Sequence record: PQ666539
Origin: Shigella phage sb1
Direction: 5' to 3' (one strand)
DNA: 64,000 nucleotides
Both the position numbers and the translations under genes were made by a program. The notes beneath the pieces were generated by a model. That model worked only from the letters and a program-made list of their open reading frames with translations. It was not told the origin of the DNA and did not search any database. Position 1 is the first letter of the stretch. Each line of letters opens with the position of its first letter. Of this stretch, positions 50,662 through 54,531 are shown in pieces.

Positions 50662-53600
50662 CTGGCCGAGATTAAAAGAAAGTTCAGAGCAGAAGATGGT
50701 CTGGACGCAGGTGGCGATAAAATAATCAACGTAGCTTTAGCTGATCGTACCGTAGGAACTGACGGTGTTAACGTTGATTACTTAATTCAAGAAAACACAG
50801 TTCAACAATACGATCCAACTCGTGGATATTTAAAAGATTTTGTAATCATTTATAATAATCGTTTTTGGGCTGCTATAAATGATATTCCAAAACCAGCAGG
50901 AGCTTTTAATAGCGTACGTTGGAGAGCATTACGTACTGATGATAACTGGATTACCGTCTCATCTGTGTCATATCAATTAAAATCTGGTGAAGCTATTTCG
51001 GTTAACACTGCAGCTGGTAATGATATTACATTTACTTTGCCATCTACCCCAATTGATGGTGATACTATCGTTCTCCAAGACATTGGAGTAAAACCTGGAG
51101 TTAACCAAGTTTTAATTACAGCTCCAGTGCAAAGCATTGTTAATTTTAGAGGTCAGCAAGTACGTTCAGTTTTAATGACTCATCCAAAGTCACAGATGAT
51201 ATTCATTTTTAATAATCGTTTGTGGCAAATGTATGTTGCTGATTATAGCAGAGAAGCTGCAATTGTTACTCCATCGACTGCATATCAAGCACAATCTAAT
51301 GATTTTATCGTGCGTAGATTTACTTCCGCAGCTACAATTAATATTAAACTTCCGAGATTTGCTAATCATGGAGATATTATTAATTTTGTTGATTTAGATA
51401 AATTAAATCCGCTTTATCATACAATTGTCACGACATATGATGAAACAACTTCAGTACAAGAAGTTGTAACTCATTCTATTGAAGGTCGTACATCGATTGA
51501 TGGTTTCTTGATGTATGATGATAGTGAAAAATTATGGAGATTGTTTGACGGGGATAGTAAAGCACGTTTACGCATTATAACGACTAATTCAAACATTCGT
51601 CCAAATGAAGAAGTTATGGTATTTGGTGCGAATAATGGAACAACTCAAACAATTGAGATTCAGCTTCCAACTAATATTTCTGTTGGTGATACTGTTAAAA
51701 TTTCCATGAATTACATGAGAAAAGGACAAACAGTTAAAATCAAAGCTGCCGGGGAAGATAAAATTGCTTCTTAAGTTCAATTGTTGCAATTCCCAAAGCG
51801 CTCAGAATATCCGCCTGAAGCTGAATGGGTGACTGTCCAATAATTAGTTTTTAACGGTGAAACTAATTATGTTCCAGTTTTACAGCTTGCTTATATAGAA
51901 GATTCTGACGGAAAATACTGGGTTGTACAGCAAAACGTTCCAACTGTTGAAAGAGTCGATTATTTAAATAATTATAATAGAGCAAGATTAGGCGTGATTG
52001 CTTTAGCTACACAAGCTCAAGCTAACGTCGATTTAGAAAATTCTCCACAAAAAGAATTAGCAATTACTCCAGAAACATTAGCTAACCGTACTGCTACAGA
52101 AACTCGTAGAGGTATCGCAAGAATAGCAACTACTGCTCAAGTAAACCAGAACACTACATTCTCTTTTGCTGATGACCTTATCGTCACTCCTAAAAAGCTG
52201 AATGAAAGAACTGCTACAGAAACTCGCAGAGGTGTTGCTGAAATTGCTACGCAGCAGGAAACTAATACAGGTACTGATGATACTACAATCATCACTCCTA
52301 AAAAGCTTCAAGCTCGACAAGGTTCTGAAACATTATCGGTTATTGTAACTTTTGTATCTACCGCAGGAGCTACTCCAGCCTCTAGTCGTGAATTAAATGG
52401 TACAAATGTTTATAATAAAAATACTAATAATTTAGTTGTTTCGCCTAAAGCATTGGATCAGTATAAAGCTACTCCAACGCAACAAGGTGCAGTAATTTTA
52501 GCAGTTGAAAGTGAAGTAATTGCTGGACAAAGTCAAGAAGGATGGGCAAATGCGGTTGTAACGCCAGAAACGTTACATAAAAAGACATCAACTGATGCAA
52601 GAATTGGTTTAATTGAAATTGCTACGCAAAGCGAAGTTAATACAGGAACTGATTATACTCGTGCAGTCACTCCTAAAACTTTAAATGACCGTAGAGCAAC
52701 TTAAAGTTTAAGTGGTATAGCTGAAATTGCTACACAAGTTGAATTCGACGCATGCGTCGAAGATACTCGTATCTCTACACCATTAAAAATTAAAACTAGA
52801 TTTAATAGTACTGATCGTACTTCTGTTGTTGCTCTATCTGGATTAGTTGAATCAGGAACTCTCTGGGACCATTATACCCTTAATATTCTTGAAGCAAATG
52901 AGACACAACGTGGTACACTTCGTGTAGCTACACAAGTTGAAGCTGCTGCAGGAACATTATATAATGTTTTAATAACTCCTAAAAAGCTTTTAGGTACTAA
53001 ATCTACCGAATCACAAGAAGGAGGTATTAAAGTTGCAACTCAATCTGAAACCGTGACTGGAATGTCAGCAAATACTGCTGTATCTCCAAAAAATTTAAAA
53101 TGGATTGTGCAGAGTGAACCTACTTGGGCAGCAACTCCATCCATAAGAGGATTTGTTAAAACTTCATCCGGTTCAATTACATTCGTCGGTAATGATACTG
53201 CTGGTTCTACACAGGACTTAGAACTATACGAGAAAAATAGTTATGCAGTATCACCATATGAATTAAACCGTGTATTAGCAAATTATTTGCCATTAAAAGC
53301 AAAAGCTGCTGACGCAAATTTATTAGATGGTCTAGATTCATCTCAGTTCATTCGTAGGGATATTGCCCAGACAGTTAATGGTTCACTAACCTTAACCAAC
53401 CAAACGAACCTGAGTGCCCCTCTTGTATCATCTAGTACTGCTACGTTTGGTGGATCAGTTTCAGCAAATAGTACACTAACTATTTCTAATACTGGAACGG
53501 CAACTCAATTAATTTTTGAGAAAGGACCTCAATCTGGAACAAACCCAACGCAGACAATGACTGTAAAAGTGTGGGGAAATCAATTTAGCGGGGAGTCAGA

Positions 53601-54531
53601 TACAACACGTTCTACTGTATTTGAAGTTAGTGATGAAACTTCTAGTCATTTTTATTCTCAGCGTAATAAAGCTGGAAATATAACATTTAATATCAACGGT
53701 ACAGTAACTCCGATAAATGTTAATGCTTCAGGAACATTGAATGCGAATGGCGTTGCTACATTTGGTAATTCAGTCACGGCAACTGGTGAAATTATTTCTC
53801 GAAGCGCAAATGCTTTCCGTTCTATTAATGGAAATTACGGTTTCATTATTCGTAATGACGGGTCAGTAACGAATTTTATGCTTACTGCATCGGGCGATCA
53901 GACTGGTGGATTTAATGGATTACGTCCATTAACTATTAATAATGCATCTGGTCAAGTAACGATTGGTGAAAGCTTAATCATCGCCAAAGGTGCTACTATA
54001 AATTCAGGTGGTTTGACTGTTAACTCGAGAATTCGTTCTCAGGGTACTAAAACATCTGATTTATATACCCGTGCTCCAACATCTGATACTGTAGGATTCT
54101 GGTCAATCGATATTAATGATTCAGCCACTTATAACCATTTCCCGGGTTATTTTGAAATGGTTGAAAAAACTAATGAAGTGACTGGACTTCCATACTTAGA
54201 ACGTGGCGAATAAGTTAAATCTCCTGGTACGTTAACTCAGTTTGGTAACACGCTTGATTCGCTTTATCAAGATTGGATTACTTATCCAACGACCCCAGAA
54301 GCGCGCACCACTCGCTGGACACGCACATGGCAAAAAACAAAAAACTCGTGGTCGAGTTTTTTTCAGGTATTTGATGGAGGTAACCCTCCTCAGCCGTCTG
54401 ATATCGGTGCTTTACCATCTGATAATGCTATAATAGGTAATCTTACTATTCGTGATTTCTTACGAATTGGTAATGTTAGCATTATTCATGACCCAGTGAA
54501 TAAAACTGTTAAATTTGAATGGGTTGAATAA
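50662..54531 (+). pseudogene. 34: long tail fibre proximal subunit gp34, CTG at the expected start codon plus four in-frame TAA codons (51772, 51841, 52702, 54211)
   Basis: one frame of 1290 codons from 50662 to TAA 54529..54531 matches the 1289-aa T4 gp34; first codon reads CTG (LAEIKR...); late promoter 50620..50627. Confidence 0.9.

Follow-up and report, generated by a model that had tools for sequence, protein, structure and literature searches.

The CTG start codon and four in-frame TAA codons in gene 34 of a Tequatrovirus record probably represent sequence errors within a window-wide G:C>T:A overlay

The closest described counterpart of the reading frame considered here is gene 34 of phage T4, which codes for the proximal subunit of the long tail fibre, a protein with PF21446 and PF21560. 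Infection depends on the long tail fibres. Single-base stops in essential late genes, the tail-fibre genes included, are familiar from the classical amber and ochre mutants of T4, in which one or a few stops of one type go together with one matching suppressor. A mixture of G>T and C>A substitutions with a minor share of A>C, unaccompanied by indels, is the classical signature of guanine oxidation, arising from 8-oxoG in the template or from 8-oxo-dGTP in the nucleotide pool. In sequencing practice, 8-oxoG formed when DNA is sheared for library construction gives rise to artefactual C>A/G>T calls, which are marked by a low allelic fraction and by the appearance of G>T on read 1 and of C>A on read 2 (PMC3616734).

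Here we analyse gene 34 in a stretch of 64,000 nucleotides of the record PQ666539, Shigella phage sb1 (hereafter the window), which corresponds to the final 64 kb of the genome of a pSs-1-like Tequatrovirus. The frame is like that of T4 gp34 in the length of its product (1289 aa), in its position between rnh and gene 35, and in its late promoter and Shine-Dalgarno sequence, but differs from it in lacking an ATG and in being interrupted by four internal stops. The features of the locus as written are as follows:

50662..54531, plus strand: gene 34 (long tail fibre proximal subunit), a stop following 1289 sense codons, with 25 private G:C>T:A changes
50620..50627, plus strand: T4-type late promoter box TATAAATA, intact, found by direct reading upstream of gene 34
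50647..50652, plus strand: Shine-Dalgarno sequence TAGGAG, intact, 9 nt ahead of the start codon of gene 34
50662..50664, plus strand: CTG in place of ATG, through a private A>C at 50662
51772..51774, plus strand: TAA for TCA (S371), through C>A at 51773
51841..51843, plus strand: TAA for GAA (E394), through G>T at 51841
52702..52704, plus strand: TAA for GAA (E681), through G>T at 52702
54211..54213, plus strand: TAA for GAA/GAG (E1184), through G>T at 54211

The gene opens with the codons CTG GCC GAG ATT AAA AGA, the CTG at 50662 lying behind a properly spaced TAGGAG and a late promoter exactly as the original prediction had described, and it terminates with a TAA at 54529-54531. Its length of 3870 nt, predicted to match that of gp34, is equal to the length in five relatives (Ec_YwIITB1, EPIMAM01, UGKSEcP1, vB_SsoM_113 and sb3), and projection of the annotation of four relatives places rnh before it on the opposite strand and genes 35, 36 and 37 after it, such that both the full-length homology and the conserved synteny of a T4-type gene 34 are present. 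In megablast searches the best DNA identity to annotated gp34 genes was 95.4% over 4301 nt, in a collinear and gap-free match. Reversion of the start codon and of the 25 G:C>T:A changes gives a repaired protein with 92-96% identity to gp34 of the T4 group, the best match to any known protein being 96% over 100% of the length, and the T4-group gp34 that it matches carries PF21446 and PF21560. The comparison with T4 made in the original prediction is thus right as to the gp34 family, although the sequence belongs to a pSs-1-like Tequatrovirus rather than to T4 itself and is at most 95-97% identical to any public record. As written, with a CTG start and four in-frame TAA codons, the frame is not an intact ORF, and to judge from its sequence it would be a pseudogene from which a full-length fibre protein could not be made.

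Across 50,697 phage records, the identity of the window as a whole does not exceed 96.7%. Look-ups of the exact gp20 and gp37 proteins of the window among known proteins returned no match, nor did megablast searches of the window against E. coli complete genomes and PLSDB plasmids. The phage beneath the unusual codons appears to be an ordinary, previously unrecorded Tequatrovirus, with a new set of alleles and with a diversity that is usual for the genus.

We aligned gene 34 with its counterparts in six reference genomes (Ec_YwIITB1, EPIMAM01, UGKSEcP1, vB_SsoM_113, pSs-1 and sb3), which was one of the checks suggested for the unusual codons, and recovered five single-base replacements in an otherwise full-length gene. 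All six genomes have ATG, TCA, GAA, GAA and GAA at the five codons (the fifth being GAG in pSs-1), in agreement with the expectation of an ATG at the start and with the claim that the TAA codons at 51772, 51841, 52702 and 54211 replace Ser or Glu. The region upstream of gene 34 together with its first 200 nt is identical to the sequence of Ec_YwIITB1, the start-codon base excepted, and the 75-mer containing the CTG start codon was found exactly in none of 499 matching phage records, the best of which agreed in 74 of 75 positions. Likewise, when 119 gp34 homologues of full length, taken from a database of 5.8 billion proteins, were aligned, residue 1 was Met in every one, and S371, E394, E681 and E1184 are kept in 21 of 21 homologue clusters at >=90% identity. 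Exact 41-mers carrying either TAA or TCA were absent from IMG/VR, and a 55-mer in which the stop site was given as N had no match in the JGI metagenomes. Since no relative carries the five variants, all five changes are private to the window.

Apart from the start codon and the stops, the gene shows numerous further changes of the same class as the stops. Its 25 private G:C>T:A changes comprise 18 missense (for example G102V, G143V, G269V, G560V, G698C, D767Y and P1276H), 3 synonymous and 4 nonsense substitutions. At all 22 nonsynonymous sites the reverted residue is present in 21/21 close homologue clusters, and the residue written in the window is carried by 0/21; G269, G560 and G698 are invariant in the 119 homologues. 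As a control we considered the 11 other private amino-acid changes of gp34, of which 8 are known polymorphisms among the homologues. Two of the remaining three, V788G and K913N, result from A:T>C:G, as does M1L.

Changes of this class are distributed over the whole of the analysed DNA:

1..64000, no strand: G:C>T:A overlay, 311 private substitutions, about 260 above the natural baseline

Private substitutions were counted per genome in a four-genome alignment of the window and three full-length relatives. The window has 1144 private substitutions with a transition/transversion ratio of 1.14, including 156 C>A and 155 G>T, whereas each of the three references has 657-926 with a ratio of 2.2-3.5, including 14-35 C>A and 25-38 G>T. 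Taken together, G:C>T:A makes up 311 of the 1144 private substitutions of the window as against 39-73 per reference, and the overlay affects about 1.3-1.4% of conserved G:C sites; C>A/G>T is accordingly the dominant substitution class in the window, as it is in 8-oxoG artefacts. Nonsynonymous A:T>C:G changes are also raised, with 41 in the window versus 17 in pSs-1, 17 in Ec_YwIITB1 and 35 in sb3, an excess that fits a weak second layer of errors of the class to which ATG>CTG belongs. Projection of the annotation detected no frameshift private to the window.

When the pSs-1 annotation was projected onto it, 29 premature stops were found in 20 genes, namely gp22 (2), gp23, uvsW.1, uvsY, gp51, gp27 (2), gp29, gp48, alt, alc (2), rnlA (3), nrdA (2), gp32, gp34 (4), gp35, gp36 and four small ORFs, which bears out the earlier suggestion that genes other than gene 34 are also hit. 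The overlay accounts for 27 of the 29. Each of the 23 stops in indel-free genes (TAA 17, TGA 3, TAG 3), like each of the four in gene 34, differs from the ancestral codon by a single G:C>T:A step, namely GAA>TAA, TCA>TAA, TAC>TAA, GGA>TGA or GAG>TAG. Furthermore, four start codons are lost in the window, two of them through ATG>ATT changes of the overlay.

The original prediction singled out gene 34 as the most heavily hit gene. This is correct by count, with four stops and the start codon compared to three stops in rnlA, and it is so because gene 34 is the longest gene; per unit length the statement does not hold, as 2.08 stops are predicted from 142 nonsense-susceptible sites (Poisson P=0.16), and 19.1 G:C>T:A hits are predicted from 1308 conserved G:C sites versus the 25 observed. 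Targeting specific to gene 34 was rejected, given this P value for the nonsense excess and a G:C>T:A rate of 1.9% in the gene versus 1.46% window-wide. The lesions do not amount to a finding in their own right: they belong to a window-wide unselected overlay, of which the longest gene collects the most, and the gene 34 finding itself is nothing biologically new.

The overlay is real as a property of the record and carries no trace of selection. Substitutions of the C>A class fall on codon positions 1, 2 and 3 in the proportion 74/67/54; 150 of them are missense, 23 synonymous and 22 nonsense. Of the private transitions, about 70-85% lie at third positions and most are synonymous, a pattern which natural divergence should give. 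The number of nonsense changes is 27, where 33-36 would be expected without selection. Per conserved G:C site the G:C>T:A rate amounts to 1.46% for coding and 1.07% for non-coding DNA, to 1.50% for essential versus 1.44% for the remaining genes (p=0.77), and, on the sense strand, to 1.43% for G>T versus 1.51% for C>A (p=0.64). The density along the window is even, at 11-27 changes per 4 kb, and no effect of sequence context was seen at the trinucleotide level or at any position from -6 to +6, the most-mutated 5-mer being altered in at most 7% of its occurrences. At short range, pairs of changes <=30 nt apart occur at twice the expected frequency, with a smaller excess at 100-400 nt; an excess of same-strand changes within <=10 nt is marginal (19:9, p=0.06) and is absent at longer range.

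Even use of codon positions, nonsense changes at the rate of chance, equal rates across genes and strands, and variants absent from relatives are the marks of an error overlay, and errors that are blind to codon position, gene, strand and context were never exposed to selection. Several candidate processes were considered and set aside along the way. Strand-coordinated damage on long single molecules is unsupported by a runs test on the window (z=-1.2, p=0.23). Motif-directed enzymes were rejected for want of a context signal out to +-6 nt, and transcription-coupled or selection-filtered mutagenesis in vivo was rejected given that neither essential genes nor the sense and antisense strands differ in rate.

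We propose, with a probability of roughly 0.85, that the CTG start, like the four TAA codons, is an error of the record, stemming from an artefact of the oxidative-damage (8-oxoG) type at the level of the consensus. In such a scenario several hundred wrong bases would overlie a normal pSs-1-like Tequatrovirus genome, with the five in gene 34 among them; the main error would be G:C>T:A, a much weaker layer of other substitutions would include A:T>C:G, and the errors would have entered when a consensus was derived from short-read data that were shallow or damaged. The true gene 34 most likely reads ATG...TCA...GAA...GAA...GAA and codes for a normal fibre protein of 1289 residues. That the variants are errors is suggested by population-genetic logic applied to the sequence. 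Replication is impossible for a genome whose capsid, baseplate, replication and tail-fibre genes are interrupted by 29 stops of all three types, and no single suppressor could rescue it; the lesions of gene 34 would thus be errors of the record and not properties of the phage. The classical nonsense mutants of T4, with their one or few stops, differ in this respect from the window with its 29 stops of three types and hundreds of unselected missense changes.

The spectrum of the overlay points to guanine oxidation as its probable cause. With the artefact described by Costello et al. 2013 (PMC3616734) it shares the C>A/G>T class, the restriction to substitutions and the indifference to gene function. 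It differs in that the artefact has a low allelic fraction in deep data, whereas the changes in the window stand at the level of the consensus, at 1.4% of G:C sites, which would require very low depth or extreme damage, or else a different cause. Library-derived 8-oxoG errors reportedly also prefer a CCG>CAG context, and this preference is weak among the changes of the window (obs/exp 1.4).

Among the alternatives, the one that survives best is an in-silico alteration, in which a G:C>T:A-biased substitution model would have been applied to a real Tequatrovirus genome. An overlay that is substitution-only, context-free, strand-symmetric and uniform at the kilobase scale is compatible with such an origin, as is the absence of the exact window proteins from the searched collections. 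We nevertheless regard it as unlikely: a simple model of independent sites would not yield the over-dispersion of the events, that is the doubling of pairs at <=30 nt and the excess at 100-400 nt, and the spectrum fits a known chemical signature and not a generic simulator. The practical verdict would in any case be unchanged, in that the variants would not be biology.

In vivo, defects of the GO system (mutM/mutY, mutT) produce G:C>T:A changes with a minor share of A:T>C:G. The resemblance of the overlay to this signature raises the alternative of a real guanine-oxidation hypermutation of a phage lineage or DNA pool, from which a single molecule, particle or clone was then sequenced, a dead genome with no later selection, for which a host of the mutM/mutY/mutT type, a mutator phage polymerase or exposure to an oxidant might for example be responsible. 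This is very improbable. With 29 stops of three types distributed over 20 genes, among them gp22, gp23, gp27, gp29, gp48, gp32 and gp34-36, and with about 230 unselected missense changes besides, such a genome could not have replicated as a phage; moreover, the load of a viable mutator lineage would lie orders of magnitude below the 1.4% of G:C sites altered here, and there is no asymmetry of strand or transcription. Were the variants real, they would capture a T4-like phage in the course of lethal oxidative hypermutation, in nature or in an experiment.

In Tequatroviruses every C is replaced by modified hmC, and the errors do sit at C/G positions. Even so, systematic miscalls at glucosyl-hydroxymethylcytosine in a nanopore-type long-read consensus are harder still to credit, as errors of that kind are k-mer-dependent and accompanied by indels, while the window has neither a context effect from -6 to +6, nor a 5-mer altered in more than 7% of its occurrences, nor a private frameshift, and merely 1.4% of its G:C sites are altered.

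We give virtually no credence to a function for the unusual codons, with CTG as a weak start and TAA read through by a suppressor tRNA or under a reassigned code in regulated or low-level synthesis of the fibre: CUG initiation does occur in E. coli, at about 1-2% of AUG and at 0.02-3% across constructs (bioRxiv 10.1101/063800), and the four internal stops of gene 34 are all TAA, but these stand for two amino acids (Ser and Glu), TGA and TAG interrupt other genes of the window, gene 34 and the genes beside it still terminate normally with TAA, no tRNA gene was found in the 64-kb window, the start variant occurs in 0/119 homologues and 0/499 phage records, and the number of stops fits random G:C>T:A hits. 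The window likewise fails as a genome with stop reassignment or a suppressor, given that TAA, TGA and TAG are all found in-frame, that TAA replaces Ser, Glu and Tyr, and that there is no accompanying tRNA.

The overlay is best treated as a quality flag on the record. In annotation, gene 34 and 19 further genes would be classed as pseudogenes even though the phage is almost certainly normal, and there is a risk that CTG initiation or ochre readthrough will be read into erroneous bases. The procedure used here, in which genome-private substitutions are classified and then examined for codon-position bias and for the rate of nonsense changes relative to expectation, constitutes a reusable test for artefacts that does not require reads.

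Two minor observations may be added. The ATG>CTG change lies outside the dominant class and is a point against an artefact of this kind; given that the A:T>C:G excess is modest, a hit on the start codon of gene 34 was improbable a priori. The low-quality records PQ356294.1 (Ec_YwIITB1) and PQ666541.1 (sb3), which are close relatives of the window (~96%), likewise have broken essential genes but are free of its G:C>T:A-specific overlay; their defects are mainly frameshifts or mixed types of substitution, and in sb3 gene 34 itself is split.

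Beyond gene 34 (the proximal subunit of the long tail fibre), comparison with other genomes revealed three further lost start codons, and additional coding changes were found at gene ends and in nrdA:

34805-34807, (-), lost start codon
35796-35798, (-), lost start codon
62940-62942, (-), lost start codon
62939-63268, (-), stop replaced by an Arg codon at the gene end, private to the window
16361-17110, (+), stop replaced by a Gln codon at the end of gp51, also in phage sb3
43454-43459, (-), nrdA, GAA GAA to TAA TAA in neighbouring codons

Two of these start losses are ATG>ATT changes, which belong to the G>T class, and the third is ATG>AAG (T>A). 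The ORF at 35669-35798 (-) differs in length from its pSs-1 counterpart, and the same length difference is found in Ec_YwIITB1. The nrdA double stop belongs to a set of some 28 pairs of G:C>T:A events lying ≤10 nt apart in the window, about 2.4 times the expectation; as a guess, this clumping might reflect locally low depth or quality.

As the terminal Gln codon of gp51 is common to the window and phage sb3, it is probably natural. Within gene 34, positions 50862-50962 (codons ~68-100) carry the pSs-1 allele and the sequence on either side is that of the Ec_YwIITB1 group; by its allele pattern this segment reads as a mosaic recombination patch, of the kind typical of tail-fibre genes in T-even phages. 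The 4-kb bin 56000-60000, around gene 37, represents the distal tail-fibre (adhesin) part of the genome, which is hypervariable by nature; it holds 171 private substitutions (carried by one genome alone in the alignment) versus 35-96 in other bins, with no elevation of G:C>T:A changes (25).

The closest public relatives, Ec_YwIITB1 (PQ356294.1) and sb3 (PQ666541.1), look likewise error-laden, and private calls made against them are therefore conservative. In the former gp23, hoc, nrdB, frd and gp37 are frameshifted; in the latter in-frame stops interrupt alt, nrdB and gene 34, the last being annotated as two CDSs.
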